This document shows, piece by piece, positions 11,520 through 33,762 of a DNA stretch of 33,762 bases. The DNA is taken from the NCBI GenBank assembly GCA_049999805.1, contig JBNGIO010006036.1, positions 33,928-67,689 on the forward strand, given 5' to 3'. The position numbers and the translations under genes were made by a program. This DNA is from Folioceros fuciformis. Its lineage: Eukaryota. Positions within the stretch are counted from its first letter, which is position 1, and each line of letters starts with the position of its first letter. The notes beneath the pieces are model-generated. The model was given only the letters and a program-made list of their open reading frames with translations, was not told the origin of the DNA and searched no databases.

Positions 11520-11561
11520 ACCACTCTCCTATGAAGGTATGTTGGCCTTTAAGTGGGAGGT

Positions 11562-11851
11562 TGTTGGGTTATTAAAGCCCAATGTGCTTAGACTAATGTG
11601 TTTAGTCTAAGATTAGTGTCTAGTTAAGTATCATTAGTTTAGATTAGCTTAAGCTAATATGTAGGAAGGTTCTTGCGCAGCTTCCTGTGCGCTTCTTGTG
11701 AAGCTTCCTAGGGAGCTCTTCTAGAGGGTATATAAACCTCCTTGAGCTCCCTTGCAATGTGAGACTCTGTGTGTGAGAGTGTGACCTATCTTTCTCCTCT
11801 CCTCCTTGCCTCCTCCTCTCCTCCTTCACCATGTGGCTCCTCTAGCGATCC
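11562..11851 (+). repeat. 3' LTR of copia element 1, lacking the terminal TTCA
   Basis: Matches the 5' LTR with about 6 substitutions and one 11-bp indel by manual alignment. Ends GCGATCC and is fused to the RT of element 2. Confidence 0.9.
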
Positions 11852-14800
11852 AATTTGAGACAAGCAAAGCAAATGCTTTTGTCTATCTCGACGAATATGC
11901 ATGCCAAGAATATGGCTTGCCTCTCCCAAGTCTATCATGTCAAAGCGAGCATTCAACTTTGACTTCAACGCTGAAATCCCATCAATGCTATTTCCAGCAA
12001 TTAGCATATCATCCACATAGAGGACCAAAATGAGCAAGCTTCCATCCTTAGCTTGCTTCGTATAGAGGAAATGATCCTCCTCGCTACGTTTGTAGCCTTG
12101 AGAAACCATAAATGAGTGGAACTTAAAATACCACTCTCTGGGTGCCTGCTTCAAACCATAAAGGCTCTTCTTTGACTTGCACATCATATTTTCTTTGCCC
12201 TTCTCAATGAAACTCTTTAGTTGCTGCATGTATACCTCTTCCTCAAGATCACCATGCAGAAATGCCAACTTCACATCCATCTGGATAAGTTCCATGCCAT
12301 TCCTCGCAACCAAAGCAAGAACACATCGCAAAGTGGTCATTTTGATAACTGATGAGAAAATCTCATCAAAGTCAATACCTTATTGTTGCTTAAAACCCTT
12401 AGCAACCAATCGTGCCTTGTACTTGGGTTTGCCATAATGGGGTATGTCTTTCATCTTATACACCCATTTGCATGGCAATACCTTCTTACCCCTTGGCAAC
12501 CGAACCAACTCCTAAGTTTGGTTTTTATGGAGCGAATCCATCTACGACTGCATTGCCTTCTCCCACTTGTCCTTGTTAGTCATTGACATGGCCTCTTTGT
12601 AACAAGAGGGCTCCCCACAATCCGTTAGCATGACATAATCAAGAGATGCAACATACCTCTTAGGAGGACATGAAATCCTTCTTGACCTCCAAAGCACAAG
12701 CGCCTCAATCGGAGCTGGTTGCACTCTCTCTTCTTCTACAAGTGGAGGAGCGGGTTCTTGCACATCATGATGTTCAACCTGTCCCTAACGGTCAAGTCCA
12801 TCTTCTTGGAAGACCACCCGTCGCACCTCCACAGTTGGAGTAGGCTTATTGTGCATCTTGGTCTCATTGAAGAACACGTCATTGCTGCAAACAATCCTCT
12901 TGGCCTCTGGATCCCATGGACGGTATTCCATCTCACCAGATTCACCATAGCCAAGAAAAATACATTTTCTGGACTTGGGTGCCAACTTGTCCCGAAACTC
13001 CTTTAGAACATGGTAGTATGCCTCGCGGCCAAACACTCGTAGATGCTTGTAAGACGGCTTCTTTCCAGACCACATCTCCTGTAGAACCTGCTCATCCACA
13101 GCCTTATTAGGAGATCTGTTAATAAGATGCACCGTAGTAGCCACTACTTGTGCCCAAAATTCGTTAGGCAATCCATAGTTTGACAACAAACTATGCATCC
13201 TCTCCTGGATGGTCCTATTCATCCGTTCAGCCACACCATTTTGGGGAGGAGTATATGGGGCAGTCAATTCTCTCTTTATTCACTTGGAATCATAGATTGA
13301 CTGGAAAGCCTTCGAAACATACTCTCCCCCATTGTCTATTCTCAAACACTGGAGTCGTAGGCTAGACTGATTCTCCATAAGAGTGACGAATTTTTGAAAC
13401 TCTATCAAAACATCATCCTTTTTCTCAAAGGATAAACCCACACCTTACGTGAGAAATCATCAATGAAAGTGACAAAATAAGATGCACCACCTAATGATAC
13501 AATGGGCATAGGTCCACAAACGTCACTGTGAACCAATTCAAGAGGTTTACTTTTGTGTTTACCTCTATCTCCATGTGGTGACTTCTATTTCTCATACAAA
13601 CAGTGCTCACACGGAGAAATCGGAGAAGTCAAAAGCAGGGACGTTACCAAAACGAGATAAGATCTTCATTCCTTTTTGAGACATATGTCCTAACTGACAA
13701 TGCCACAAGGAAACACTTGGCTATTTTGCTACACAAATCACATGATCCTTGACAGTGGTTACATGAAGTGAGTACAAAGTGCCACACTTCGATCCACGAG
13801 CTAACATAAGAGAAACTTTGGAGATCTTCCAAGAATTATCCCCAAACCAACAGTGGGGGCCAGCGTCATCCAACTGCCCTATGCCAATTATGCTTTTTGT
13901 TAACTTCGGAACATGCTTAACATCCTTCAGTACGAATGAAGAAGATCCGTTGTCAAACTTCAGCTGCACATCACCAACGAGTGTAATCTCGCATGCATAG
14001 TTATTTCCAAGCTGAGCACATCCTTTCCTAGTAGCATCATAAGTGCTAAACCACTCCCTATGCGGAGTAACATGGAAAGATGCTCCAGAGTCAATTATCT
14101 AATTAAAGAATAAGTGACTTTCCACAGCTGTCAGTTGTGCAGAATCGAAGGAAGAAGAGATAAGAACATCTCCATCATCAACAGAATTCACCTCGTTAGG
14201 CTTGATACTCGGACTTGCCTTGTTATCACTCTGCTTCTTCTCCTTTCCTTTGTCCTTCTTGAACTTCTCGCAGTCCCTTCTGATGTGACCCTTTTTGTGA
14301 CAATGGTAACACTCAACATTGTTACGACTACAAGATTTACTACGGGAANNNNNNNNNNNNNNNNNNNNNNNNNNNNNNNNNNNNNNNNNNNNNNNNNNNN
14401 NNNNNNNNNNNNNNNNNNNNNNNNNNNNNNNNNNNNNNNNNNNNNNNNCAATGGTAACACTCAACATTGTTACGACTACAAGATTTACTACGAGAAAGGC
14501 TTCGCTCCTTGTACTTCCTCTTTGAAGTGGACCTTCCTCTTACCATGAGGGCAGTGGAACCTTTCAAAGGTTCCATATTCTTCTTGTTCACCTCTTCTGT
14601 TAAGAGGCTACCTTCTACATTTACATGGTGAGACCACTGGCAGGAGCAGAATTACTCAAAGCTGTACGAAAGGTGTCCCAACTCTCAAGTAATGTGACCA
14701 AAAGAAACATAGCTCTCACAAAATCTGGGAACGAGATACCTTGAGATGAGAGCTGGATGAAAATGGTATTGAACTCATTGAGATGATCGGACATCCTCAT

Positions 14801-16377
14801 CCCTTCCTCCATCTTCAAGTCCACCAGCTGTTACAACCAGTACACTTGAGAAGCCGCACTTTGCTTCTTATACATGTCACACAACTTCTGCCATAGCTCG
14901 TAACTTGTGGTCTTGTCTTTCACATTGAAGTGGACCGACTTCGACAATGTTAGCATGATGGTAGATCTAGCAAACTCATATAGATCTTGCCACTCATCCT
15001 GAGTCATGCTAATAGGTTTCACACCTAGCAACTTTCTAGGCTTGATCTGCTTTTTTTGCTCTAGAACATTATACACTTGTTCTTTTCAGAACGGGAAGTT
15101 AGTACCATCTAACTTCTCGATATTGAACATAACATTTTTTGAGGACGTCATCCTTCATAATCGATGCAAATCAAACAAAGGCTACTTAGAAACGATCTGA
15201 ATGTAATATAGATTTTGAAAGTTACCCTTATGGTAATCATGCCTTGTTCCGCATCGGCTAACACAACTTGTAGACCTCAAACCATTGCACGAGTCTATCC
15301 ACAATCTCAGCAATCAGCACCACCGTTCTTGCCACAGCCAAATGCACTATTTTTGCTACCTCGTAGCGTTCAAAAGCTTGTGACAGTCTTCCTCTGTGGC
15401 GTCGACTGTCCTGCGACGCCGGCTGACTTAGGCCCGACGCAGTTTGACGCCTTACTGCGCCCGCCTTCTTGCACCTAGCGCGGCGGGGCTACCATCCCTC
15501 TACGTGGTGCGGCCTCCGCCCCACGCCCTGCGCGGCAAGGCCTATCTGCCCGGTGCCCGCAGAGTGGCGCTCGCACGGCGTGGGTGGGTGCCCCGCGCTG
15601 CAGAGTGGCGACCCGCACGGGACAGTAGCGCCCTCGCAGGCCCCGCATTGAGGGGGCCTGGGGCCTTGAGCCCCACGCCCGCGCCCTGCGTCTACGCACG
15701 TGCCCCACTCTCACGCCCACGCCCTGCGCCCCACATCCCGTGCCCGTGCCCCACACTAGGGCAGGGGCCTCACACCCTGCACTAGGGCAGGCATCCAGTG
15801 TGGCGCGGCGGCGCCCTCTTGGGTGCCTCGCGTTGCCGAAGCCTGCTGCACCCCCCGCAGTGCCGGAGCCTAGCGCCCCGCGCTGGGGCAGACACCCCGC
15901 GTAACGCAAGCATGTGCCCCGCGCTGCCGCGGCCGGCACCTAAGCACGGCAGGGCTGGAGCCCCCTACACCCCGGGATGCTACCCTCACTCTGGTGCCTT
16001 CCTCACGGCCTTGTTGCGCCTTTGTGCATCTTGTCCGCAGCACCTACAGCCGTCACCCTCTTGCTCCACAACCAACCTCTGATATCAGTTGAAGGATCGC
16101 TAGGGGAGCCACATGATGAAGGAGGAGGGGAGCAACATGATGAAGGAGGAGAGGAGAAAGCAAGGTCTCTCACACACTGTATGGCAAGGGAGCTCAAGAG
16201 GGTATTTATACCCTCTAGAAGAACTCCCAAGAAAGCTTGAAAAGAAGCTCACAGGAAGCTACGCAAGAAGCTTCCTAAAGATTAGCTTAAGCTAATCTAA
16301 ACAAATGATACTTAACTAAACACTAGTCTTAGACTAAACACGTTAGTCTCAGCACATTGGGCTTTAATAACCCTACA
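11852..16377 (-). mobile_element. Ty1/copia element 2 (sister of element 1), 3'-truncated within RT
   Basis: 5' LTR at 16377-16090, PBS TGATATCAGAGG at 16087-16076, GC-rich leader. gag from about 15158 (FNIEKLDGTNF), zinc knuckle CYHCHKKGHIRRDC, protease IIDSGASFH, integrase, and RT through YVDDML to LSQ. Confidence 0.92.
16090..16377 (-). repeat. 5' LTR of copia element 2
   Basis: Reverse-complement homolog of 8130-8412 with TG...CA ends, more diverged than the element 1 LTR pair. Confidence 0.9.
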
Positions 16378-17436
16378 CTATGCATACAACAGGTGTGTGG
16401 GCTGTCTAGGCAGAACCCTGTGCTCAAGTGCATATGGATGCAATATCTCCATAAAGGTAACACTTTTGGAAATTGTGGGCTGCAAAGTGATAGGGTTGAT
16501 GAGCTTATATGCCTTGGTTATCTCAGTATAGCCAACAAAAACCAAAGGAAGAGCCTTGTTATCTTATTTTCGCTGCTTCTCTCCAGGGACATGCAAAAGC
16601 CTTTGAGCCAAAAACGCATAAATGCATGACACTTGGCTTTCTATTCTAGAAAAATTCATAGGGAGTTTTATTTGGCAGAGCTATGGTGATGAGCTTGTAT
16701 GAGGTGTAAGTAGCTATGACCACCGCTTCCACCCAATATGGAGATAAAAGGCCAGACCATAGCAACATGGACATGGTCATTCCCATTAGCATGTGGTTCT
16801 TCCTTTTCGCTACACCATTCTGCTGTTGTGTGTAGGGGACAATAAGCTGATGTTTGATGCCTCTATCTTCCAGGAATTTTGTAAAAGCATTACTAACAAA
16901 TTCACCGCCATTGTCAAATCTGAAGACCTTGAGGAGGCAGCCAATTTGCCTTTGCACCATCAACAGCCACTCTTGGAGCAAAGGAAAAGTCTTGTTCTTC
17001 CAGTGCATAGGGAAGGTCCAAGTATATTTGCTGAAGTCATCGGAAGTGTGAGGTAATATTAGCCCCACCTAGTGAAGAACTTGCAGTCTTCCTGAGATGT
17101 CTGAATGCACTAAATCAAGGACGACTGTTGTTCTATGAGTAGGTGTGCAAGGAAATGGTACTTGATGCTACTTTGCCAATGCATAGATCTCACATATAGG
17201 AAGCTCCTTAAAACATGAAGGTAAGGGTTCTCTGTAATAGTCTTGTCTAGAAGATGCCTAGAGTTTAGCCTTGTTAGCATGACTAAGGTCTACATGCCAC
17301 AGCTTGGCTAGTTGAGGAGCTTTTAAGCTACGAAGCGTGGTAGAATAAGCCTGCTTTCAGTGTGTGCAAGATATGTCTAAACAATACAATTTTGCCTCAA
17401 GAAAGGCCTTAAAAATATAAATATCATGGAAATTAC

Positions 17437-17569
17437 GTCTAGAGAAGCAACATGTATCCTCTGACACGGTAAGGATCAAGTCTAGAGAAGCAACATGTAT
17501 CTTTAGACACGGTAAGGATCAAGTCTACAGAAGCAACATGCATCCTCTAACATGGTAAGGGTCAAGTCT
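17437..17569. repeat. 43-bp tandem triplication inside the copia 3 protease region
   Basis: GTCTAGAGAAGCAACATGTATCCTCTGACACGGTAAGGATCAA-like units start at 17437, 17480 and 17523. Confidence 0.9.
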
Positions 17570-17816
17570 TTCATTTTCATGAGTCTGATCAAAGACATAA
17601 GGTTCTTAGCCATCTTAGGTACGTATAAGACATGAGGAAGAACTAACATTGTGTCATCATGCAACAGAAATTTGTAGATACCTGAACCAAAGATACTTAA
17701 ACAAGTGGCGGTTTTCTCATCACCAAGGTAAACCTTCTTTGGGACAGAGGAAAGAGTCAGGCAAGTGAAAAGAGATTCATCGTGACAAATATACATTGTT
17801 GCCCCCATTGTCCGAG

Positions 17817-20094
17817 TGTGAACCTCCAAAGTTTGGGGTAGTGGTTTGTTTTGGTTGAAAAAGGGTGAATAGTGGTATTGTTTGGTTTTCTTTTTCTACT
17901 TATTTTCCCTAATTTTTCTTTATTTTCCGGTCATTTTTCCTATTTTTCCTTGTGCTAATAAGGTTAATTGACCAGTAAATAATTGGTTTGGTTATTAGAG
18001 TGGGTATAGGTTTGGTCCCAGACTTGGAAAAGTTTAGGTCTGGTACCGGACCATAGAGTTGGAAAGGTTTGAATTTAGGTTTGGTTATTGGTTTAATATT
18101 AATTAAAAATAGTATCAAATAATTGTTTGAAACTAGGAGCGGGAATATGGGGCTATGTCAAGGTGGTTTGGCTGGCTAACAGGGTTGCATGATTGGCTGA
18201 ATGGCCATGAGGGCCGCACCCTAACTAGGTCAGAACTGCGGCCACGCCCATCTCCATTCCTCTACCTCTCTTCCTTCGTCTTCCTCCATTCTCCTCTTGT
18301 CATTTCCTCCTTGATCCAAGCTGCAGGCAGAAGGACCCTGAGAGTTGGGATTGAATGCGCACCGGAGGAGCTTTAGCCGAGCTGCAAGACTTGGGCATTG
18401 CAGGGACTAGCAGCACAACCCGGTCGGTCTCCTGATCCACCTTCATCCTCGATTTCCTCTATTCAGTTCCCATCGGCGCCTTGTCTTGATTCTTCGAGGC
18501 AGACAGTTTTGATCAGCCAGTTAACCATCTAACCGTTGCGTCCAGCTATCCAGCAGGCTGCTCTGCTGGATGGCTGGACCCTAAACCCTGGATTCCAGTG
18601 TGATTTTCCTCATCCCGCTTCCTATCCCTTGTTTTGATCTTGCAGCAACCCCGTAGCTTGGTTTCGCTAGCCTGATCCCCCCTGCCCCATTTCGATTTTT
18701 TTTAGCCAACTACCAGCGTCCTATGCCCAACCACTCATGTAGCCCGATCTCACCAAAGCCCACCACCCTGAGCTTAGCTTGCCATCCTGATCCACCTCAC
18801 CTGGCTAGCAAATCACTAGCGCCTGCTGCTAGAGCCCACTGGCACTGTCCCTATCCTCACCGATTTCTCAACCCGCCACCACGTTGCATGAAGCCAAAGC
18901 TGCCGTAGGTTGGAGGAGCCCGGATCCAAACTGGGACCTCTAGGCCAGCTAGGCAGTGCGTTGACGTTGCCATCTCCCACTCCCCGCTAGTGTTCCCCCC
19001 CCCCCCCGTAGAACATCTCTTAGGACTAAACTAACAAACTGACGAGTGCTCCTCCCATGAGGGATGTGCATCAGCCTTTGTGGGAACCGTTAGGGGAGAT
19101 GCTACAGGACTGAAGGTGTCTAGCTCGGAGGCAACCTCAGCCATCATGGGAACAGTGGCAGGAGAAGCCTTTGCCTCAACAATAAGAAGGTGGCGCCCAC
19201 CAGATCTAGAAGAGTGGACAATAACCAAGGATCAACAAAGGGTATTGGTAGGGTCAGTAAGGGGAGTGGCATCTCATCAAGTTGATGGTAGGGTAGACTA
19301 GTCTAGAATAATGGTGTGCTATAAGCTATTGTTTTGGTTGTCGTGTCCTAGTGGTCAACTTGTAGAGAGAGGAAAGGGACTAGAGCTAGGAGTCCTCTAT
19401 AAGAGGCTGTGAGCCTCTAGAACTTGCTTATCACTTTACGATCTCTCTCGGGCTGTCCCTGCTTGGATATAGCAGTGTGTGCCGGCTGTGCATGTTGTGC
19501 AACGTTTGGTAAAGCTTTGAGAAGTGGTGGCCAGGGTTATGGGCCGGGTCACTTTAATTCTTGATCGTGCTTTCCGTGTCGTGCCCCATGATCTGTCATT
19601 CTTGTTTCCTCGCAAGGCTAGAGTGAGTGCCAACCATGCTTGCATGCTGTCTAGTAGGATTGTGGGTGGAGGCATGCTCTTTTTTGGGCTTGTTCTAGTG
19701 ACTCTTGCCAAGTGGGGGAGTCAAGAGGGAAGTGTAGAGGGTAGTGGTGTTGTTGATGGTGCTGGAGTGAGTGAGTAAGTGAGTGAAGTAAGTGAGGGAA
19801 GTCGTAGTCCTGAGAGGTTAGTGTCGTTGTAGTGGCTCGAGTGAATTTGTGGGCACCGAGAGAGGTGCAGTCAACCGTTAGACAATGAGGAATGTCCCAC
19901 ACTTGATCGGAGCGGGAGGGGAGCCCTCAAATCCGTCATCGAGTTGATTGAGTCTGACCCTCCATCCATAGCAGCAAGGAACCACATCGCTCCTTCGTGG
20001 GAACGAAACCCAATGTCTCAACAACAATGGGATAAGTGTGGACACTAAAGGTCGAACCCTTTGGCAAACAGTTGACCGGGGTTTTGCCACCACA
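17817..20094 (+). mobile_element. Solo LTR of family X, 2278 bp
   Basis: TGTG...CACA ends with an imperfect 5-bp TSD (CCGAG / CCAGG). The host copia protease frame rejoins when it is removed. Left end matches 1-96 and right end matches 31927 onward. TATAAG at about 19398; no TE coding domains recognised inside. Confidence 0.85.
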
Positions 20095-20636
20095 CCAGGT
20101 ACCAACTATTAGCCTCACTTGCTTATAGTATTTAGATAGATGGTAAGAATCTTGACAACTGGCTTGCCTAAAATGTGTGTTGAAAAATCCACTATATGCT
20201 CATCTTTGGGGTGCTGGGTTGTTGAATTTGCAGTTGTAGGGCGAGGTACAACCCGCTAAGGTTCACTGGCCTTCTTCTTGCGACATTCCCTAGCCCTGTG
20301 TCCAAGTAATCCACACCAATTCCAGTAACCTGAGGGATCAACTGAGGCCAAGGGCCACACTGCGGTTGCCTAGGGAGGAAGGCTATTAGGCCCAAAAATA
20401 ACAATCAAAGGATTACTTCGATGGCCCACCGCACTCGTTTCCGGGGTAAGAAGAGAAAAATTAGTTTTCCAACAAATGGTCATTTTCGGCAGACTCGAGT
20501 TTATCAAAGTAGAAGACATGCCAAACCCCTGGCTAGTAAGTGGACGAGCAAATTGTGGCCTGAGTACACTTGCAACTGTCCAGGTTAATTACGCCCCACC
20601 TTCTACATGATGGCAGAGTACCGGATCTTGAGCGGA

Positions 20637-21443
20637 CCGTCCTTGTGTCACCTCATTAAGTGGCCTATAATCCCCACACATCCTCTTCTCTGTTCAATTA
20701 CCATGTACATCTTTCTTTGGTGGGAGTATTGTGGCTGTTGCATATTTTGACTCTGAAGATCTAATCAACCCCACTTCCAACAACTCTTAACACTTCTTGT
20801 TCACAATCTCATTCTCCACCTTCCTCAAACGATATGGCCTCCTAAAAACTAGCTCCTTAGTCTTAAGACAAATTTTGAACTTAAATGTCTTGTGTCTACC
20901 CTTTCCTTATTGGAAAAAGCAAACACTTGCCTTCTATCATCTAAAATCTTCCCTATGCTTAACATCCATCTCCTCACAAACATCCCAATGAAAATTTGCA
21001 AACTCCCGTTTTTCACAAATGTTCATACAACCAACTAAACCAACACTGTTTCTAAACTCATGCCCAGCTTCCACTGGCTTTCCACCCACCTTCATTTGCT
21101 TACTTCTGTTAAAATCATCACCCAATGTACTCTCAACTTTCCTCATCCTCTTGGTCTCTTCCCCGACTTATGGCTTAGTGTCATCACTTGATTCACACGA
21201 ACCTTCTACTTTTAATCTTGTCATCAAAATAACTTTCTATTTCTGCTTCCGCTCTTGATAAATTTTTATGGACATCATAAGCAACTTGAGCGTATTCAAA
21301 TCCATAGCTTGCCCAAGATTTTTATTTCTCTGACCACATGTTAAACTCTTTGCGTAAGTGGAATCCATCTTGAAGCCCATTGCTCTTTCGCTATATGTAG
21401 GTGATGGAGCATCCCACACATTTCTTCTGACATCAAATACCAT
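20637..21443 (-). pseudogene. Second gypsy fragment: DNMT C-terminus (motifs IX-X), linker and RT N-terminus
   Basis: MVFDVRRNVWDAPSPTYSERAMGF...RNKNLGQAMDLNTL, then RRPYRLRKVENEIV...PPKKDVHGN*TEKRMCGDYRPLN. Diverged paralog of 24433-23640. Confidence 0.88.
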
Positions 21444-22400
21444 TTAACTCATCCCTATGTTAAGCTATTAACATATTATCCATTGCCATAGGCATTATCC
21501 TTCTAAACAACTCCGCTCTATGTGCGGCTATCTTTAACCACTTATTAGGATCGTCCAAATCCACTATAGCATTCACCTTGTCTTCTAACATCCCAGATAG
21601 CTGTGGTCTACGCCCAAACAACAACATGTACGGTGAAAACTTTCCCAGCGATGCTTGCCTACTCATCCTATAACCCATCGCAAGAAATGGTAACATCCTA
21701 CCCCACTCACTCTTGTCCATTACCAGAGAAATTTTCCTCACAGCACTCTTACAAGTCTGTACCATTCTTTTTGCCAAACCATCAGCCTCCGGGTGATTTC
21801 TTAAAGTTACCCTATGATCAATAAGGTACTGATTTAAAAATTCATCAAATTCTCCCATAAATTCAATACCTTAAAACTTCTGGACACTCCCCAAAATCAC
21901 TCAACACATGATTAAGAAATGCTTCCTTAATGTCATGTGACTTCTTCTCTCTCAAAGGCACCAAAACTATCCACTTAGAAAAATGTTCTATCATCACTAA
22001 CACATATTTAAAACCTCTACGCGTGACTGGTAACTCTCTAGCCAAATCCAAACTCCACCTATAAAACATCCCCCTAATAGGCAACGGATGAAGCTCAGAA
22101 GTTTTGCCTGAAAAACTTGCCTTCACCCTATCACAAACCTCGTAAGTGGACACCACCTTCTCTACTACATCCATCATTCCTTTCCAATAATAATTGTTCA
22201 TGAGCAAACTCAAGGTTCTTTTTGTGCCAAAATGTCCTAACTCCACAAAAATCTTTCTTGCCAAATTCATTCTTTCTTTAGGTCTTGGTACCACCTTCAT
22301 ATTATCTTTAAACAATAACTTATTGTCAACCCATACATATCTCCTACTTCGCTTTGTCACCCTATCATTCTCCTTCTCTATTAATGCCTCCTGATTGCCA
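21444..22400 (-). pseudogene. gypsy integrase (zinc-binding and DDE core), C-terminally truncated
   Basis: LGHFGTKRT...YYWKGM...EVCDRVK, LHPLP...RWSLD...IEHFSKW, HPEADGLAKRMVQT, SPYMLLFGR. Confidence 0.9.
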
Positions 22401-22559
22401 CCCTTTTTCACCCTCTCTAATGTACTCTTATCTTCCCACACATCTACTGACATCGAAGGAACTCCCAACTCCACCAAATTCACCAAGTATGCACTCGGTG
22501 TCCATCTGGACACCACCAGATTATAGTGAACCCTAACATTCTTATCAAAATCCTGCCTA

Positions 22560-23930
22560 GCAACTGTTGAATCCCATGAACTGCCTAATGGATTCTTTGA
22601 CAACACATCTGCATTTGCGTGTTTCACTCCCGCCCTATGCTCANNNNNNNNNNNNNNNNNNNNNNNNNNNNNNNNNNNNNNNNNNNNNNNNNNNNNNNNN
22701 NNNNNNNNNNNNNNNNNNNNNNNNNNNNNNNNNNNNNNNNNNNTCCGTCACCAACTTAAATTGAGCCCCATACAAATAAGGCCTAAAATGCAATACTGCC
22801 CATACCGCCGCAAAACATTCCCCATGATATGAGGAATAATTCTCTGCAGAATTGTTACTCCTGCTTGCATATGCTACCACATGCTCCACCCACTCTCATC
22901 AGCCTGTGCCAGCACTACTGCCAAACCAAGTTTGCTCCAATCTATATATAACTTGAACTTTCTATCAAAATTGGGTCTTGTCAATAAAGGCTTGCTCATC
23001 GAAATGTCCTTTATCTCCTTAAATGCCCTCTGCTGATCTTCTCCCCAAACCCACACTGCATCTTTCTTTAACAACATTGTCATCGGTTTTACCACCACAC
23101 TATGGTTTGCCACAAAATTGCGATAATAATTTACCAATCCTAAAAAGGAGCCCAAAGTTCCCACATATGAAGGTGGCATCATATTGCTATCGCTTCAACC
23201 TTGACGTCAAATGGTACCCCTAGGCACTATAAAATGTCTCAAATATGCTATCTTAGAGGATCCAAACCTGCACTTTTGTGGATGACATGTCAAACCAACC
23301 TCCTTCAGTCTATCCAACAGTCGCCTAACATTCTCCTTATGTTTTTCCACATTGTTACTAAAAATTATTATATCATTTATGTAACATCTAGTCAAAGACA
23401 ACCCCCTCAATGCTTGATCCATCGCTCTCTGAAAAGCACTAGGAGCACTCTTCAACCCAAATGGGATAACCACCCATTCCCACAAACATCTATTACCCCA
23501 AAAAGCAGTCTTCTTCTTATCCTCCTCTTCAATTTCAATTTGATTAAAACCACCCCTCAAATTCAATGTTGAAAGTATCTTACATTCACCAATTGGATCA
23601 AAAATTTCCTCTAGAGTTGGCATTGGATACCTGTCCATAGGTGTCACTTCAGTAAGCGGCCTATAGTCACCACACATTCTCTTTTGTGTCCAATTGCCAT
23701 GCGCATCCTTCTTTGGTGGAAGCACCATAGTTGTAGCATACTCTGACTCCGAAGACCTTATCAATCCAGCTTCAAGCAGCTCTTGACAATTCTTGTCCAC
23801 AATTTCATTCTCCATTTTACTCAAACGATATGGCCTTTTAAAACCGGTTTAGAAGTTTTAAGCCGAATCTTAAACTTAAACGTCTTGTGCCTGCCCAACT
23901 CCTTATTGGAGAAAGCAAATACCTGCCTCC
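22560..23930 (-). pseudogene. gypsy reverse transcriptase and RNase H
   Basis: RMCGDYRPL, KKTAFW, PFGLKSAP, CYINDII (degenerate YIDD), SFLGLVNYYRNFV, KLYIDWS, VAYASRS, GECFAAVWAV, HANADVLS. Frameshifts, plus an N gap at 22644-22743. Confidence 0.93.
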
Positions 23931-24262
23931 TACTTTCAAGAATCCTTATAAAATCTCCTTATCTTCCAAAGTTATCTCATCGGAAATATCCCACTAAGAA
24001 TCCATACATGTTTCTCACAAACCTTAACCTCACAACTTGAGCTAATCACACTCCCAGCTTCCCCCTCTACCTTTGTCCCACATCTCATCTGCTTGTTCTG
24101 CTTACCCCCATCACCTAAAACCTCGTCATGCTCTCTCATTCTTTTAGTCTCCCCCTAGCGTCTTAACCTTCATTTCTTCTTACTTTACCCAAACTATGTC
24201 TCTCCAACCTTGTGCTCAAAATCTTTCCACTTTCTCTTCCACTCTTGATAACCTTTTATAGA

Positions 24263-25208
24263 CATCATAAGCCACCTAATTGTATTTAAATCCATAGCTT
24301 GTCCGAGTTTTTTATTCCTAATCTCAAATGTTATGCCTTCCACTTCAGTAGTATTTGTACCAAAACCCATCGCCCTCTCTCTCTCCATGAGAGATGGTAT
24401 ATCCCACACATTCCTCTTCGTATCGAATATCATTCCAGGTCCATCCCCCTTAAATGCATTGGCACCTTCAAAACTAACAAATGTCGGTAATGCCTCCTAA
24501 GCTCACCCTTTTTATTTACACAATAAAAGGGTTGTCTCTCATCTGAAGTCACCTGCTTACTCACTCGTCCCTCATTCAATATCTTATCAACTATGAAATC
24601 ATCATTCCTACGCCATTGACTCACATGCATATGCAACAAATGCTTAGGCATCATGTTATTCCAAAAACAGCGATGCCTATGAGCCCTAGATCCAAACTAC
24701 ACTGCATCCAACTTTATAGGCTCACCCAAAAAATAATTGATCTCCTCAAAATCTCGCCTCAATGCCATTCTTCTGTCCATTTGTGAATCTACATTCTCAA
24801 TAAAAAAAAACCACATTCTTTCCTCTGATGTTTTTGCACCAAATTCAAAATCCTAATTAGCTCATAAAATAACACCGACCTACAATCCAACAAGCCTTTT
24901 CCCTTGCCTGCCATTGAATGCCCTTGACATTCCCAACCAGCTATTATTAGATTAATTTCTTCCTCCACTCGAAATTGTATCAATCCAATAAGCCTAACAT
25001 CTTGCGACCAAGCAAAAAACGCTTGCTTCATAGCTTCAACCTTTAATTGTTCAGGATACTTTTTACATAATTTAAACACCCTTGCCTTCGCAATTGCTTG
25101 ACAAACTTCATCTGGGTCACAATAAATGTAACGTCTAACTACATACCCAGCGGCCAACACAGCCTCTAGGCCAGATGCAATCCCAGCAAACAATTCAACC
25201 ACAACCAA
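24263..25208 (-). pseudogene. DNMT3-like C5 cytosine-specific DNA methyltransferase catalytic domain embedded in gypsy pol
   Basis: Motifs in canonical order: I VVVELFAGIASG, II YIYCD, III QDVR, IV IIAGWECQGHS (Cys codon 24929-24927), V RSVLFYELIRIL, VI FIENV (24798-24790, after a slip in the A9 run at 24802-24810), VIII AHRHRCFWNN, IX ERERAMGF, X RNKKLGQAMD. One stop (24699-24697) and two frameshifts. Confidence 0.92.
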
Positions 25209-25539
25209 TCCATACTCAGACGAACTCAATGTCACAAGTTTATTACACACAGGTTCAAGTTTACAAACTGCTTCCTTTGTATAAGCTTGAATTTTATCAT
25301 CTAGCTGAAACTCAATCTGCCGCTTTTCAAGTTCTCTAAGTTCAATTTTAGCTAATGCTCTACCAACATTCTCTCATTGCAACTTCTTCCACTCTGTTAT
25401 GACTATATTCTTTTAAACATAACTTATCCATATGACGCTCCACCCACAATTTATCATCTTCTTCCTCCTGTTCATCCCAAGAAGTTGCCATGTTTACCAC
25501 ACACGCATCTTGCATGTCCTCCTGTAATTGCAACTTAAG

Positions 25540-26000
25540 TGGAATTGTTGCTACTCTTATTCCTTCACCTTGTCGCCACCCTGGACGATAGTAAAACTCC
25601 TCTGTTCATAAGTCCACCCCTGCTTCATGCATGAACAAAGCCTCTGTTCCCAAAATAACATCAAAATTTCCAAATTTGACAATCAAATATTTCATATCAA
25701 TCACTGTCTCTTCTTATGTCCCAGGCTTAAAACATAACTGCAATTTCTCCTTAGTCTCTCCCATCACTGCCTCCAAACCTTCATTGGCCATCCTTATCTT
25801 CCATCTTATCTCTTGTATATCTCCCTTTCTCAGTCCCATAGCATACGCTATGTTGAAATGAATCAATGTAGGTTGCGCCCCCGAATCTATTAATACCTTC
25901 TCCAGCGCAAAACCTTCTATCAAAAATTCACACCCACCATTGTTCAGAAATGCAATTCCTGGTCTAACTTTTGTTCTGTCGCCATCATTTCGCATATTGC
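25540..26000 (-). pseudogene. gypsy aspartic protease
   Basis: KVLIDSGAQPTLI...IRMANEG...FDVILGTEAL...EFYYRPGWR, with two in-frame stops. Confidence 0.85.
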
Positions 26001-26165
26001 TATTGAAACAAAGTGAAATTGTCTTGTTTAACTTTCCATCCACTCTACTATCACGTCCTATAAAAGTTCTCGAATTTTTGACTCGTTCACCCCCACTTTG
26101 ACGCCCAATTCTAACACACTTCAAATACAACCAATCACATCACTCTGAGACACCTGCATTCTCTT

Positions 26166-26395
26166 ACTCACTCGTCTTGCAAGGGAGAATACTTATGGAC
26201 TTTGGCACTTGCACAACCCTCTGCTGTCCAACCAGGGGGGTTGATGATGACGTGCTCACAAATCGAATTCCTAGTGGGATCCGTAACAACCACATCAACA
26301 ACACAAACATGTTCTCCCCTAGTGAAGAAAAGGTCGGCTCTAAGTGAAACCCCATTGCGCAAAGTATATGGACGCTCCCTATACGGAAGAAACCC
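26166..26395 (-). pseudogene. Fragment of a restriction-like endonuclease (RLE) of a CRE/R2-type non-LTR retrotransposon
   Basis: GFLPYRERPYTLRNGVSLRADLFFTRGEHVCVVDVVVTDP...PGWTAEGCASAKVHKY fits the E...RxD...DVxVxxP...KxxKY pattern. Out of frame with the flanking gag. Confidence 0.65.
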
Positions 26396-27500
26396 ACATC
26401 TTCATCCAAATTGCAAATATACTTAAAACAAACTTCCGTCTCATTGTGCATCCCTATATCTATCACCAGCTGGCTAGTCCGATTGTAAAACATAAGTGCT
26501 GTCTCATCAGGCTTCCTCTTCAAATTTGCCAACTCATCTTCATGGCATTAACAGACGGAAACCTCATCTCCAATCAAATGAAAAATTCCTTCACTGGCTC
26601 AGCATGTTTACTGGTCACCACCAAATCCATGAAACTTCTCAAGTAAAACTTGTAAGCATCTCCACACAACAAGTTCCCTAACAGAGTAAATTCATATATG
26701 GGATCTAATTCAACGTCCTCACCTCCACACACCTGTAACTTAATCATATAAAACATGCACATTAATTGGTTAATGGACACCGATGACTTGGGATGCCCGA
26801 AATACTTCTCACTCTTTGCAGGTAGTACCACTCCCCCTCTGCCTTTCCTTTCCAACCCAAAAGTTTTTTTAGTCGACAAGTTTAACATTTGATTGTTTGT
26901 TCTTCTCACCAACTTTCCCACATCATTCACTTCTCCCGGCTATCCTTGCACTTCCATAGGCTCCACAGTCCGATTCTGTACGTCCATGACAAGTTCTTTA
27001 TCTATAATCACAAACCCTCTTTCCTTACACACATGCCTCTACTCTTCGTCCGACAGTTGTAACCTTTCTTCCCTTGCTTCTACCCCTACAGATATTTTGT
27101 GTCTTTTATCAATGTCCCCGTTAAGATCTACGTTTCCACCTTCTCCCTCTATCTCTCTACCTAAAACACTCGCCCTATGTGAATTTCCTCCTTCCTCATC
27201 CAACGCACTGCCTGGAATATCACTCCCCCCAGACTCTTAGTGTTTCCTCCTTCCTCATCCAATGCACTGCCTGGAATATCACTCCCCCTAGACTCTTAGT
27301 GTTTCCTCCTTTACCCTTCATCTTTGACTGCTCAGCCTTTTTCTTAAATCCTCTGTCTGAACTCTTATCTTCCATCAGTCTCTTTTCACCTCTCCCAACT
27401 TTTACACTGTCTGCCTCACTTCTCGACCTAGGCAGCACATCAGCTTGATTAACACTTGCCCGCATCACTCTGACACCTTTGATCACAAGTCTCTTCATGT
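26396..27500 (-). pseudogene. gypsy gag remnant
   Basis: LPAKSEKYFG...LLCGDAYKFY...LEMRFP / LKRKPDETALMFYNR...FKYICNLDEDV resembles a retrotransposon gag capsid region, directly upstream of PR. Start approximate. Confidence 0.65.
27184..27301. repeat. 59-bp tandem duplication
   Basis: 27184-27242 and 27243-27301 differ at two C/T positions. The duplication shifts the gag-region frame. Confidence 0.9.
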
Positions 27501-27787
27501 TAAAAGCTAAGCACCAGCTCAAATGAAAATTGTCACGCCAAAGTCTAATAACTTTTACAACTAATCAAGTCTTACACTGGTTTATATCCAAACCAACATG
27601 GATACAGTGTGGAATACTAGCTCAAAAATTGGACGCCTGGTGGCATTCCACACTAAGTTCACTTCTCCCTCTTTTCTTTCTTAGCACGCCACTAAACTTT
27701 TCACATCTGAAAAATGTCTCCCAAGCACTATCAAATCATCACAGAATGCTTCAAGCTGACTCCAACTACTTGGTGGTGAACACCCTA

Positions 27788-30091
27788 TTATGAGGCGCCG
27801 CAAACTTTGCTGTCTTCTTTCCTTTTGCTCTTCTTCCTTCTTACAAAGCTCTCGATCCTCTTCGAAGTTCGCTCACCCAACTCATTTTCGTCTTCTGCTT
27901 TCTCCAAACTGCTCTTCTTTAGTTCAATCCCCTCACCATATTGAGTTCCTCCTGCACAACTTTTGCCATTCTTACAACAACAAAGACTCACCAACTATCT
28001 CTACACACCAAATGGCAAGTTCCATTTATCATTTCCAAACAAAAAAACTTGTACACACATGCAAAACTTTAACCCTGTCTTACTACTGAACTGCCTCTAT
28101 GTCGCAGAACCTCCCTCACTGCTACTACTAATCGATTTCACACTAACATTCTTCTCTGCAACTTCTGATGCAAACTTCTCTAGCTTAAGTCTTTTGGACC
28201 TTCTCACAGGAAGGTCTCCAGTCACCGCACCCTCGCCAACCTTCCATCTGGCGTAGCCCCTTCGATATGCTCTTCCTCTCCCAGCCTGGTAGCTTGAGCT
28301 CCTCCTAGGCGGGTCCCTCTCAAGGTAGTCCTCAACTCGTCTAGGCCCCTCCGAAACCTTTCGTTTGTTCCCCACTCTGCTCTTCACATGTGGCGACTCG
28401 TTCTTCTTGAGTTGCTGGTATTGTCTCATTATAACCTCGTAGGCAACATCTAGTTGTCTACCTTTGAGGGTGCTGAAGATGGAGGTTGCCCCACCTTCCG
28501 ACAGTAACTCTGTGGAGATAATCTCCTCGAGCTGACGTTTTTTTCTCCACTTCTCTCGCTTGCAAGTCCTTCAGCAGCGTTGCAAGCTTGACTCTTTCTG
28601 CAGTTTGCTCAACAATCTCTGCCGAGAGCTCCTCCACCTCTCGTTTTGTCTCCTCTCGTAGCCTTCGCAGCTACTCCGTAGAAAATCTATGTGTCTGCAG
28701 CAAATTCCACTGAGGTGGCAACGAATTCTGATCACCGCCACAAAATTCCTCCTCTGCTCCCACGTTCGCGTCTTGCGCTGCTTNNNNNNNNNNNNNNNNN
28801 NNNNNNNNNNNNNNNNNNNNNNNNNNNNNNNNNNNNNNNNNNNNNNNNNNNNNNNNNNNNNNNNNNNNNNNNNNNNNNNNNNNCACCTCTTGCGACGAAG
28901 AACTATATTCCAGCAACCGTCTTTGCCTCGACCTTGGTAGCGCTGCTAGCGAAACCTCTTCGTGCACCACCTCGGTATCTGGAGCCGCGGGTGTAACTGC
29001 CGGGAGTGTAAGCTTTGCTGGCGACTCGGGTTCTTCTTCCATCGCGCACGCCACCACAGAACCTCCCGTTAACAGCCCACCATCTTCCTCAGTCGTCGGT
29101 GCTGCTGCTGGCACTTTCTTCAAGAATTCACCTCCCACTCCTGTTGCCGCAACTGATGCAAAATTCTCTGGCACTGCGCCTTCCTCACCTGCTGTCAGCA
29201 CCACAGTGAGGTTCCTTCCTGACTGTGCATCTCTCTCAGCTACTACCGACATTGCCGAAGAATCCTTTCCTACAAAAACATCTCCCTTCGACGTGCGTTC
29301 CTTGCCTGCTGAAACGTCCTCCTTCAACAACCCACTCTCCTTAGGCGTATCTTCCCTGCAGGCTAACAACGTTGTCACAAAATTCTCCTGTGATGTCGCA
29401 GTCTCCTTCTCCTTTGTCAGCACTACTGGGGAACCCTCTCTCGGCAGTCCGCCTCCGACCCCTCCTGCCAACGTTGTCGGAAGAGTTCCTCCCAAAAACC
29501 CACCTTCCTCTCCTACTCCGCGTGCTTCTGGCACATCACCTTGTAGCAGCCCGTTCTCCTCTCTAAACTCCCACACGCCCTCCCCGTTTCTTGGCAGCAC
29601 TGCGGCTTGTTCAACCTCCTGAATTGTAGGCGGAGCGCTTCTTGCAGACTTAGCCTCACCTTCTTGCTTGCATGTGGTCCTTGGCAGCTCCTTTGACAAA
29701 GCCTCACCACAATTATACTGCGCCTCTTTCTCTTGCTCGTGATCCATCAAAACGATGACATCCGCTTCTCCAAACTTCTCTGTGCCAGCTTTTCCCTCTC
29801 CTAGCTACACTGAGCTACAACCGGACTACCCGTCACCGCAGGCAATACAGATGGTCCGCATACGTTTGTCACCGCATCTCTCATCCTTTCCAACCTAGGG
29901 CTTAGGTCGCACCTGAGCCTTTCCAATTCCGCCTTTTGCTCTTCAAGCTGCCGGAGAAGCTGAGCCTTTGTGACTCTGCCCGCAATCGCTGCTCTGGAGC
30001 GACCTTTTGCCTGTTTTCTACTGCGCGCCCTAGAAACTCCCGAAACCCTTGCAGACTCCTTCCCCTTGCCCGCCATAGCCGCGTCTTCCAT
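27788..30091 (-). pseudogene. Extra ORF of unknown function upstream of gag
   Basis: Consecutive minus-strand ORF pieces (30091-29801, 29750-28671, 28429-28097, 27994-27788) separated by stops and frameshifts. They include coiled-coil-like, Glu/Ala/Gly-rich and basic segments. Confidence 0.55.
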
Positions 30092-30609
30092 TGCCTTGCT
30101 CTCTTCGCAAAGTTCTCCACATGCTCAGTCTCGCTACCTCACGCTCCATCGTCTTAAATTCCCTCTCCAATACCACAGCACAAACCCCCTCTCTCTTCAT
30201 CTTTCAACAAGATGAAAGAAAACTATGCTCATACCCAACTTGACACATCCTAACCTTAGCAACCTCCACCCCAAACAGAACTTTTCAGCAACGCTTGCTT
30301 CACTAACACTCTTGCAATCTCTCTAACCTACTCACTGCCTAGCCTTTCCCCTCAATCACATTCTCAAATTCCCCAAGCATCCTTCAAACGTCAACAAGGC
30401 CATCCATTCAATCACAAAACTAACAAGATAACATGAACAACACTTTGCAACACCGCCACGACACTCTCACCTAGCCACTCTTTTCTTAAGTGAAACTCTT
30501 TGTTCTCAAAACATGAGAAACCCGTGCACATGCTCAACTTCCAACATTCAAGAGTCAAACATTCTTTTGATAGTGACAAGTTTAAAGATATCAGTCTGAT
30601 GATGCTCCG

Positions 30610-31077
30610 TGTCATGCCATTGCAACGCTTTCCTATTCTCTAACGTGTGCAAACGCTGATTGACAACACAGAACCTTTGATTCAATTGTTCAGTCTGCTA
30701 CAAGCTTCTTGGTTACAATTGCTCATTGCAAAAACACTAAGTGCATCACCGCTCATCAAGCTTTCTAAGCGAACTATCAAAAGAATATTCGATCATTCTT
30801 TCTCCATCACTATATACCTACAACATACCGTGCTAACCACCTGAATGGTCATTTCCAAACCGTTATCAACTGTCTACAAAGTTAACCATCAAAAACCCTA
30901 CTCTTCAACCATTCCTTCGCGAGAACTTTTGCTTGCGAACTGTCTCTTTAGTCAAAACGTAAGGGATTTACCCTTTATGCTAGCGTATTTGTCCCAAGCA
31001 AACAGCTTTCGCAGTTGCGACCTGCACAAAAAGTTCTCACAAATGCAAAACTCTATCAGACTTTCTAAGTCATGACA
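30610..31077 (-). repeat. Probable 5' LTR of the DNMT-gypsy (468 bp)
   Basis: Bounded by perfect 7-bp inverted ends TGTCATG...CATGACA, with TATATAG on the minus strand at about 30810-30816 and an abrupt switch to another element at 31078. No second copy and no clear PBS found. Confidence 0.55.
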
Positions 31078-31926
31078 TGTGGTGCTAACACCAATTTTAT
31101 GGCCAGAGGTTTTGCCCAACGATGGGGATTGGATATCGAGCGGGGTTGTGGAGCAGTACACCTAGTAGACGGGTGTATGCAACATCGGGCGACATTGAGT
31201 CATGTAGTTAGTTTACGGATAGGGGTTCACTATGAGCAAATTTATTTTACCATTACAGACTTAGGATATGGTCATGACCTGATTCTAGGGATGCCATGGC
31301 TCGAGGATTGGGAACCCACCATAGCTTGGCGTGGGAGGGAGCTCACCCTCCTAGTCCATGGTCGACACTTAGTTATCCAAGGTGGACGGCCTTAGGAACC
31401 TCAAAATCAGGGTTCGGCTGTAGAGGTGGCTTGTGATCCTAGGTGCCAGGCTACACCTTCCTCTTTGAGTGTTATTAAAGAGCAACTTTGCCCAACGCAA
31501 CCCGATCAATTACAGGCACCTGAACATGATAAGCCCTTGCAAGAATTATTAACCGAGTTTGACAATGTTCTAATTAACAGGTTGCCGACAAGGTTACCCC
31601 CATCCCATGATGTTGATCATTGAATTGAGCTTCTACTAGGTATTCATAAGCCCCCGTATCGTCTTGTGTATCGGATGTCCCCACTAGAGATAGAAGAGTC
31701 GGCTCGCCAGGTTGAGGAGTTGGTGAAAAGGGGCTATATATGACCATCCACCTCCCCCTATGGGGCGCCTATTCTGTTCTCACGGAAGAAAAACGGTAAG
31801 CTTCGTATGTGTATTGATAACCAAGGCCTTAATTCGGTAACTAAGTGAAATATGTTTCCTTTACCCCGCATTGATGAGCTTTTGGAGGGACTAATTGGTG
31901 CCCGATATTTCACCAAGTTGGATATG
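31078..31926 (+). pseudogene. Chromovirus-like Ty3/gypsy protease-RT remnant
   Basis: CGANTNFM...[63 protein letters not shown]...YFTKLD. Cut on both sides by LTR insertions. Confidence 0.88.
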
Positions 31927-33762
31927 TGTGGAGGCAAAACCCCGGGCACCGATCGCCAACGGGTTCCACCTTTAGTGGCCACACTTATCCCACTGTCGTT
32001 GAGACATTGGGTTTCGTTCCCACGAAGGAGCGATGGGGTTCCTTGCTGCTGTGGAGGGAGGGTCGGACTTGATCGACTCGATGACGGATTCGAGGGCTCC
32101 CCTCCAGCTCCGATCAGGCGTAGGACAGGCCTCGCTGTCCGGCGGTCAGCTGCACCTCTCTCGGTGCCCACAAACTCACTCCAGTCACTACAACGACTCT
32201 AACCTCTCAGATCTACGTCTTCCCTCACACACCTCACTCACTCTCTCACTCTAGCACCAACACCAGCAACTACCAGCAACCAGCAACGACACCACTACCT
32301 TCTACACTTCCCTACGGACTCCTCCTACCCGGCAAGAGTCACTAGACTAACCCCAAACAAAAGGAAGAAGGGAACACACTCCCCTCTTGGGTATCTCCTC
32401 CCCACAACCTTACCAGACGCCATGAGACATGGTCGGCCTACAGCACTTGACCAAGCAAGGAACAAGAGTGGACAGGTTGAGAGAAAGACACACCCTTTAC
32501 AATCAAGAGCTAGGGGCAAGCCCCTACACCCTGGTCATTACACCTTGTGATCCTACCAGACACTATACAACCGGCAACACGCTGCCCGCGATCCTACCAG
32601 ACACTGTACAGCCGGCAACACGCTGCCTGCGATCCTACCAGACACTGTACAGCCGGCAACACACGGCTTGCGATCCTACCAGACGTTGCACAGCCGTCAA
32701 CACACTGCAGGTCCTAGACCAAGCAGGGACAGACCACAAGAGCTCAAGAAGAGAGGACCTCCAAGAGCTCACAAAGAGATAGACTGACTCCCAAAAGTGA
32801 ATGACTCCCTCCTCCTACAGGCTCACCTGATCTTATAGGAGCCTCTCTCTCTCTCTGACTTCACCTCTCTCTAACTTGAGAAATATTATTTTAATAGCCT
32901 AGTCGGCTGTCACCAGCCACTTATTTAGACTTCTAGCACAACCTGCCACCAATGAGCTTCTGGCCCTACTACCACAAGGATCTACCACCTCTTAGACTAT
33001 CCACAGACTTCGGAGGATGTCTGATCTTCAAAGATCTGCGGACGCCGCCTCTTCCTTGCTGGATGGTCGCCCGCTAAGTCTTCCCCTGCAACTGTTCACC
33101 CTTGGTGGTTGAGCCAGCCTCTAGGGAAGGAGCATGAGCAATGGGAAAGATAGAGAAGAGGTGGGAAGGAGTGGGATCAGCAGCCGGAACCTGGCCTGAA
33201 AACGGTAGCTTATTCAGCGGGATCAGCTCCCAGCTGAAATGGTTCCTCGGCCATGGAAGACTGACCCTAGGGTGCTGGGGAAGGCCCTGAACTAAGGGGA
33301 AAAGAAAGCAGGTGAAACGGAGTTGAAATGGAATTTCTGGAATTAAATCCAGAAAATAGGGAAGAAAATAGGAAAGGGGAAATTAGGAAAATAAAAAGAA
33401 AAGGAATACGGGGGTACCTATACGGTATATGTATCAGTACGTATTAAATACGTATCTAAACCGTATAAAATACAAGGGGGTATACGTATACGGACCGTAT
33501 ACGGTCTCTAAAACAAAACTCCTTACTTGGAGAGGGAGGGAGCGGGAGCGGGATCGGGATGGCGAAGGAGCGGGCAAGGGAGCGGGAGGAAATCAGCCAA
33601 CCATGGGGGGGGAAGACGGGCAGAATGGAGCACGGGAGCGTGCGGGGCGGTCAGATCCGGCGCCGCGGTGGCTGGGGAAGTCGGCGTGCCGCCGCAGCTA
33701 GGAAGATTGGTCAGTAGCGGGGTAGGATGGGCAGGAGGCGGAGGTAGAGATGGATAGCAGCG
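31927..33762 (-). mobile_element. LTR related to family X (3' end at 31927), running off the window
   Basis: 31927-32350 aligns to the reverse complement of 20094 down to about 19690. TATAAG on the minus strand at about 32832-32837. Similarity fades beyond about 33100, so the right part is less certain. Confidence 0.75.
32549..32712. repeat. 41-bp tandem array, 4 copies
   Basis: GATCCTACCAGACACTGTACAGCCGGCAACACGCTGCCTGC-like units start at 32549, 32590, 32631 and 32672. Confidence 0.92.

Follow-up and report, generated by a model that had tools for sequence, protein, structure and literature searches.

DNMT3-like cytosine methyltransferases have been reported from within retrotransposons, in SymbioDIRS-Dnmt3 of Symbiodinium and in KnitGypsy-Dnmt3 of the charophyte alga Klebsormidium nitens (de Mendoza 2018; PMC5890265). 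This study calls the two acquisitions independent and describes the SymbioDIRS-Dnmt3 enzymes as the only methyltransferases of transposable elements with demonstrated de novo CG methylation, shown in yeast; the legends of its Figs 1e and 4c give the layout A-coding-B-A-B to DIRS-like elements and to KnitGypsy-Dnmt3. A 2026 preprint (10.64898/2026.05.21.726589) lists 'streptophytes (Gypsy-DNMT3)' among the known cases, and PMC12344493 mentions DNMT3 inside retrotransposons of streptophytes and dinoflagellates. The accessible portions of PMC9033089 and PMC11982613 hold no land-plant case of a DNMT-bearing retrotransposon. No account of one was found in the literature as covered, which left out most subscription journals and the supplements and so gives no proof of absence; the gypsy form has been published from a single charophyte alga. 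Here we describe a DNMT-bearing retrotransposon copy in a 33,762-nucleotide stretch of contig JBNGIO010006036.1 (assembly GCA_049999805.1, Folioceros fuciformis, positions 33,928 to 67,689; hereafter the window). We read it, with a probability of roughly 85%, as a degenerate, rearranged copy of Ty3/gypsy type, from a lineage with the order gag, protease (PR), DNMT, reverse transcriptase (RT), RNase H (RH), integrase (INT), and of the Gypsy-DNMT3 kind found in K. nitens. The lineage is apparently multi-copy in its genome, and the single host gene of the window has an embryophyte-like, moss-like character.

The minus strand, on which the parts of the element and the host gene described below lie unless stated otherwise, holds a complete, unpermuted C5 cytosine methyltransferase domain at 25373-24197. 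It is spread over four pieces, defined from the list of stop-to-stop open reading frames (ORFs) and the sequence, which together cover a profile of 12 short relatives (alignment A1) from end to end. Piece A (24789-25373; profile positions 78-245, E 1e-52) runs from ELFAGIASG to GWECQGHS and beyond, and ends at a first frameshift in a homopolymer run near 24830-24800. Piece B (24700-24852; positions 242-278, E 1.4e-9) contains FIENV and is followed by an in-frame stop at 24697-24699. Piece C (24433-24696; positions 280-347, E 1e-22) comprises AHRHRCFWNN and the variable region up to a second frameshift near 24496-24440, and piece D (24197-24496; positions 348-427, E 9e-25) carries ERERAMGF and LGQAMDL. 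These segments, which we take to be motifs I, IV, VI, VIII, IX and X, respectively, follow one another along the profile in the order of DNMT3, whereas DRM enzymes are permuted. The stretch is free of introns. A C5-methyltransferase scan, proposed as a check in the original prediction, gave a match of piece A alone to Pfam PF00145 (28.2 bits, above the curated threshold of 22; E 1.6e-6); pieces B to D, though matched by the relatives' profile, singly found no Pfam family. That prediction, made from the letters of the window, had described a full unpermuted methyltransferase broken by one stop and two frameshifts, and both parts hold: every motif it quoted is present in pieces that tile the profile, and the three lesions are those given above. 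It had also placed the C-terminal part of the domain in the frame of the RT. Piece D and the RT ORF (23848-23207) do share a frame (648 = 216 x 3), yet the 348 nt between them (23849-24196) are degraded and contain 12 in-frame stops. In relatives this linker is coding, and the apparent spacer can be read as a coding linker in the family because a second fragment in the window, described below, aligns across it to the relative P0173.

The affinity of the domain was assessed through its relatives. When the family profile was compared with all PDB chains, DNMT3A (2e-21), DNMT3C (7.5e-19) and DNMT3B (2e-18) came out on top, followed by tobacco DRM (2.6e-11), M.HhaI (2e-8) and Arabidopsis DRM2 (3e-7), plant DRM being ten orders of magnitude weaker than DNMT3; no chain named DNMT1, CMT or MET1 was among the 53 matches with E of 0.01 or below. 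The AlphaFold2 structure predicted for P0016, which is the closest relative (pLDDT 88.1), retrieved the methyltransferase domains of DNMT3A, DNMT3B and DNMT3C first in Foldseek (E ~1e-18, TM 0.64-0.77). The animal host enzymes DNMT3A/3B/3C are the best matches of the family by sequence profile and by fold alike. As judged from the relatives' profile and predicted model, and not from the broken window copy, the domain thus appears closer to DNMT3 than to DNMT1, CMT, DRM, DNMT2 or bacterial methyltransferases. It differs from host DNMT3 in having no PWWP or ADD domain, in being embedded in a polyprotein, and in carrying Glu for Pro in motif IV in most members. Protein Atlas gave the label 'DNA_methylase' only, with bacterial clusters. 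The catalytic Cys is kept in 142 of the 144 family rows; 130 rows retain both ENV and HRxR.

The original prediction had the methyltransferase between protease and RT in a gypsy-type pol, and this is the arrangement observed, with a protease upstream and RVT_1, RNase H and integrase matches downstream. An aspartic protease with the motif IDSGAQ lies at 25519-26139 (profile E 2.4e-14; tblastn to P0093, P0163 and P0003); its support in Pfam is weak (PF13975, gag-asp_proteas). Beyond the linker follow the RT (23207-23848; RVT_1 5.9e-25, catalytic motif YIND), an RNase H read in two frames (22744-23194; RT_RNaseH and RT_RNaseH_2) and cut by a gap of 100 N at 22644-22743, and an integrase (21451-22642; Integrase_H2C2 and rve) with one frameshift near 21870. 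The integrase can be followed by tblastn to residue 2173 of the 2188 of P0093, placing the end of pol near 21451. Upstream of the protease a gag-like remnant (26395-26540) matches positions 220-269 of an N-terminal profile of 15 relatives (E 6e-6). The window pol is badly decayed and passes through frames 2, 0, 1, 1, 2, (gap), 1 and 0. By tblastn it is collinear with single long ORFs of other organisms: PR 26022-25519, DNMT 25349-24245, RT 23842-22889, RH to 22746 and INT 22639-21451. Both the order PR-RT-RH-INT and the domain set (RT_RNaseH, H2C2 finger, rve core) are those of Ty3/gypsy (Metaviridae-type) elements, with the DNMT inserted between PR and RT. As in Gypsy-DNMT3, a DNMT3-like domain lies within a gypsy-type Pol, which relatives encode as single intact ORFs.

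An exhaustive HMMER search with piece A returned 647 proteins (E <= 1e-3), of which 255 reach E <= 1e-10; many are 1000-3400 residues long, with the match in mid-protein. Longer relatives of this piece had also been sought through a word index of proteins, where none of 3165 candidates reached E <= 1e-3; since the exhaustive search gave 647, that blank reflects a limit of the index. Pfam analysis of five long relatives yielded RVT_1 - RT_RNaseH - DNA_methylase - Integrase - PHD in four (in one of these, P0027, with the DNA_methylase match below threshold) and DNA_methylase only in the fifth, P0003. Of 231 retrieved proteins 227 match the DNMT profile, with RT before DNMT in 79, DNMT before RT in 28, PR before DNMT in 10, DNMT before INT in 19 and an undecidable order in 91. 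The PR-to-INT order of the window occurs as a single ORF in P0093 (2188 aa), P0163, P0173, P0156 and, from Closterium sp. NIES-53, P0175, and the window's order is also seen in proteins of Closterium sp. NIES-54 and NIES-65; intact PR-DNMT-RT-RH-INT ORFs of more than 2000 residues exist, with Closterium among the hosts. In a further group of relatives (P0166-P0172, ~1330 aa) the ORF ends shortly after the DNMT; this subclade may carry gag-PR-DNMT as an ORF of its own, divided from RT-RH-INT by a stop or frameshift within the linker.

The two domain orders also separate in trees. In a DNMT tree of 144 rows the window falls in a clade of 36 (support 98) that contains 21 of the 22 rows with DNMT before RT and all seven PR-DNMT rows; the other 108 rows are of the RT-before-DNMT kind, apart from one odd row, P0189. 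In a tree of RT plus RNase H (89 rows), a branch with support 99 sets apart the window together with all 16 rows that have DNMT before RT. The other architecture is that of green-algal gypsy elements with the order RT-RH-DNMT-INT-PHD, such as Monoraphidium neglectum MNEG_11595. These have a DNMT of the same family (E down to 1e-24) and share with the window lineage the motif set, including E/P-C-Q, and a gypsy-type RT, RNase H and integrase; unlike in the window, their DNMT lies between RNase H and integrase, and the two architectures are split by branches of 98-99 in the DNMT and RT trees. Within metagenome contigs a relative was encoded in 375 of 596 candidate stretches. Among the 80 loci kept from these 375, on which the following counts rest, DNMT precedes RT in 51, a further 7 show PR-DNMT, 15 have RT before DNMT, 6 show DNMT-INT and 1 DNMT alone, so that the window's order is present in 58 of the 80. 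In most relatives a PHD finger follows the integrase. These figures suggest a family of hundreds of diverged members in two domain orders. The DNMT is not the one-off insertion that had been named as the outcome to dispose of the prediction: the same RT lineage carries it at the same place in relatives. Six metagenome loci (L006, L011, L027, L032, L057 and L058) contain intact-looking PR-DNMT-RT-RH-INT-PHD elements of ~9.3 kb with split repeats A...B-A-B, many copies of which lie on long AT-rich contigs (GC content 0.36-0.44). The RT-before-DNMT loci are GC-rich (0.50-0.67), a contrast that suggests different host groups for the two orders.

The ends of these relatives are split repeats of the form A...B-A-B and not simple long terminal repeats (LTRs). 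The A-coding-B-A-B layout is full in 6 of the 16 loci with enough flank and partial in 2 more; in L006, A occupies 5636-5927 and 14484-14775, and B occupies 14307-14491, directly behind the PHD finger, and 14776-14960. The window copy, cut short behind its integrase, does not show it. In the relatives it would be the best available link to the published family. KnitGypsy-Dnmt3 resembles the window lineage in the intronless, unpermuted DNMT3-like domain inside a gypsy-type Pol, in the A-coding-B-A-B repeats of the intact relatives, and in purifying selection on the DNMT (one pair of loci here; for K. nitens copies, Ka/Ks < 0.2 in PMC5890265). It differs in its host, a charophyte alga there and apparently an embryophyte here, and in that the window copy is dead and without terminal repeats. 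No K. nitens sequence was among the named matches to the DNMT family. SymbioDIRS-Dnmt3, as portrayed in PMC5890265, shares the DNMT3-like domain in Pol and the DIRS-like split repeats; it is a DIRS element with a tyrosine recombinase, whereas the window element has a DDE integrase with an H2C2 finger.

The abundance of the lineage was examined with Logan contigs of four runs from one organism, aligned to 19500-32500 at a likeness of at least 80%. Three DNA runs of one sample gave 3536, 4474 and 3869 contig pieces over this region, all identity bands included. At DNMT positions such as 24883, 25152 and 25170, other letters occur in 3-20 contigs per run, much as at RT positions; therefore many diverged copies of the DNMT part are present. 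The homopolymer at the first frame break differs in length among some copies. A run guessed to be RNA gave one contig of 490 nt on 27441-27929, with 41 differences. In one run of the same sample, X3, G>A (766) and C>T (437) differences are in excess, and often all of its contigs at a place carry the change and none of those of X1 and X2. This run looks like a base-converted library (of the bisulfite or EM-seq type), from which the methylation state of the family could be read.

Just one clear host gene is present in the window, an apparently intact 14-3-3 gene of five exons (3163-4800), GF14 iota / epsilon-like by the names of its matches. The best named among its 6489 matches are Physcomitrium (90%) and conifers (88%), followed by Sphagnum, Ginkgo, Diphasiastrum and Amborella (87%) and a fern (86%), with a metagenome protein at 92%; no alga is among the best 120 of the 6489. 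In a quick tree of 39 rows, from a set without liverworts, hornworts or algae, the window groups with Physcomitrium, the metagenome protein (92%) and four Sphagnum rows (SH-aLRT 86). On this sequence evidence the host appears to be an embryophyte, probably a bryophyte. The 'apparently vascular plant' of the original prediction was not borne out, the gene being embryophyte-like and grouping with mosses.

Around the main copy the region is a nest of pieces of one kind of element. A second, older fragment of a related copy (20645-21443) comprises the C-terminal end of a DNMT, the linker and the start of an RT, and adjoins the integrase end. It is 70-80% identical in nucleotides to 23641-24440, matches profile positions 368-427 (E 5e-14), and aligns by tblastn in one piece across the linker (21443-20646) to residues 1274-1518 of P0173. 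Exact contigs (20909-21492) span its junction with the integrase end, and contigs on 20368-21235 are far fewer than on the matching internal stretch. The fragment is probably left over from an older copy and became attached through a deletion or a recombination event; given the far fewer contigs on 20368-21235, we judge it less likely to be a regular terminal part of the element. A third fragment, the N-terminal part of an RT in inverted orientation, lies on the plus strand at 31648-31935 (tblastn to P0173, P0175, P0163 and P0093).

Several observations weigh against our interpretation. The window copy has suffered an internal deletion of gag, with ~365 profile positions gone between the remnant and the protease; no direct repeats flanking 21451-28600 were found in the window, so that the LTRs expected of a gypsy element are absent; and the integrase end is fused to the fragment of another copy. 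Owing to the missing repeats, the gag loss and the fusion, the layout beyond PR-INT cannot be read from the window. The contigs of the sequencing runs are short and do not give the PR-DNMT-RT adjacency in other copies, and they come from one sample that is possibly the source of the assembly. Both trees were made with FastTree and contain no host DNMT3, DRM or CMT outgroup, and the branch of the window DNMT is long (1.18), with an odd letter composition. Selection was measured as the ratio of nonsynonymous to synonymous substitution (dN/dS) at 0.11 for DNMT and 0.05 for RT, figures that come from a single usable locus pair with dS near 1.4, the only one below saturation among pairs of 17 loci with intact DNMT and RT. 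Kinship to KnitGypsy-Dnmt3 is proposed from architecture and repeat layout only. Motif IV of the window reads Glu-Cys (GWECQGHS) in place of the Pro-Cys looked for in C5 methyltransferases, which to our knowledge is near-universal among them. This is a feature of the family: E-C-Q stands in 95 of the 144 rows, the window included, and P-C-Q in 31, with both variants present in both architectural lineages. Finally, in the only assay of such a domain in print, the K. nitens Gypsy-DNMT3 domain gave no methylation in yeast, a result its authors call inconclusive (PMC5890265); human DNMT3B likewise failed in that assay.

Two other origins for the arrangement were weighed against a DNMT-bearing gypsy lineage resident in the plant. 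Were the DNMT a host DNMT3 gene or pseudogene, or a captured one-off fragment, it would sit inside the element by chance or through misassembly, and such a view can draw on the three 100-N gaps of the window scaffold and on the nest of element fragments in the region. PR, DNMT and RT, however, all lie within the gap-free stretch 22744-28783, collinear with single intact ORFs of other organisms; the RT and DNMT trees agree, the metagenome loci repeat the order (58 of 80), many diverged contigs cover the DNMT part, and there are no introns. This explanation is largely refuted and we hold it to be highly improbable. Alternatively, the element might stem from an alga, streptophyte or chlorophyte, living on or in the sampled plant, and have been mis-scaffolded to plant sequence. 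All named relatives of the element are algal (Closterium and Monoraphidium), and 100-N gaps separate the scaffold piece with the 14-3-3 gene from those with the element. Against this, the piece at 14449-22643, which includes the integrase end and the second fragment, has repeat families in common with the 14-3-3 piece (1-97 versus 17816-17912 at 94%; 8130-8539 versus 15944-16377 at 76%), and exact contigs cross the junction of integrase and second fragment. Moreover, thousands of contig pieces from the runs of one organism match the element, whose GC content is like that of the rest of the window and whose observed/expected CpG ratio is 0.47 in pol versus 0.52 for the whole window. Because of the shared repeat families and the alike composition and CpG ratio, algal contamination is given low weight; we consider it improbable.

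What the domain does in a plant-resident Gypsy-DNMT3 lineage is a separate matter. In intact members it would be translated with Gag-Pol, and might be released by the element's protease, as the original prediction had also supposed. Its place adjoins the enzymes that make and insert the cDNA, before RT in one lineage and between RNase H and integrase in the other. The domain could carry out de novo methylation of the new cDNA or of the DNA where it inserts, and a new copy would arrive already marked. Such de novo methylation is discussed in PMC5890265 and is the simplest reading; for the present family we put it forward tentatively, as a somewhat doubtful proposal, with the negative yeast result and the Glu of motif IV counting against it. 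The chief rival, which seems to us rather unlikely, is a domain that is retained but is in practice no DNA methyltransferase, and that acts instead on the element's RNA or binds DNA or chromatin so as to direct integration, along with the C-terminal PHD finger. It would suit the Glu for Pro in motif IV of 95 of 144 rows, the PHD fingers behind the integrase of most relatives and the inactivity of the K. nitens domain in yeast, and RNA methylation was raised by the authors of PMC5890265 for another class. Yet the catalytic Cys, ENV and RxR, needless for binding alone, are kept almost throughout; fold and profile are DNMT3-like and not DNMT2-like; and the yeast assay is the one in which human DNMT3B failed too (PMC5890265).

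The locus is of interest for a host that appears to be a land plant and for a wider family that is large and has two architectures. It is nearly an even bet, falling slightly short of one, that Gypsy-DNMT3 is not confined to algae, with a PR-DNMT-RT lineage multi-copy, living or recent, in an embryophyte (moss-like) genome and forming part of a green-algal and streptophyte radiation with two domain orders, far larger than the one published case from Klebsormidium. Cytosine methylation is the main route by which plants silence transposons, and a transposon that brings its own de novo methyltransferase into a land plant would bear on the interplay of element and host methylation. If some copies in the plant are intact, a land plant would possess, in addition to its own DNMT3, DRM and CMT, de novo methyltransferases encoded by transposons. 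Such transposons might mark their own new copies, imitate gene-body CG methylation or cause stray methylation of host DNA. The family-wide Glu for Pro beside the catalytic Cys poses a question for enzymology.

Further features of the element region were noted. Across 26175-26398 (~220 nt, in the gag region) contig depth is ~10x that of the neighbours, with loose ends at both borders; this looks like a small high-copy insertion, or a piece of a more abundant family, at the place where gag is deleted. Between ~20600 and 31000 the strands are asymmetric in composition, with C 11% and G 29% on the sense strand of pol and a GC skew of ~ -0.4 on the plus strand, the rest of the window being balanced. 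Candidate causes are a mutational bias of the family and strand-specific deamination. An inverted repeat (19677-20095 / 32363-31926, 82%) was considered as the ends of a DIRS-like element and rejected in favour of a separate high-copy repeat, because at its sharp boundaries (20094 and 31927) 15-21 contigs have loose ends with dissimilar flanks, and because its summed depth is orders of magnitude above that of the element. This repeat (19677-20095 / 31927-32363) reaches summed contig depths from tens of thousands to 200,000, with poly-A loose ends at 32362 in one run, and may be a retroposon resembling short interspersed nuclear elements (SINE-like).

Elsewhere, Pfam found no family in the upstream ORFs 28884-29804, 28097-28570, 27220-27564, 26574-26939 and 26164-26547, and an Rfam scan of the whole window gave 0 matches. 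Two copia-type elements, mutually inverted (8822-10731 versus 13752-11848, 91%), lie within 8130-13752 and share flanking repeats (8130-8408, 11562-11851 and 16094-16377); a copia-like integrase and gag remnant occupies 16646-17895. On the plus strand at 136-424, tblastn (E 4e-11) matches two short stretches to the PHD-finger end of P0010, a polyprotein of the order RT-RH-DNMT-INT-PHD; they may belong to another element remnant or to a PHD gene of the host. At 32546-32708 there are 3-4 tandem copies of a 41-nt unit, 85-91% alike.

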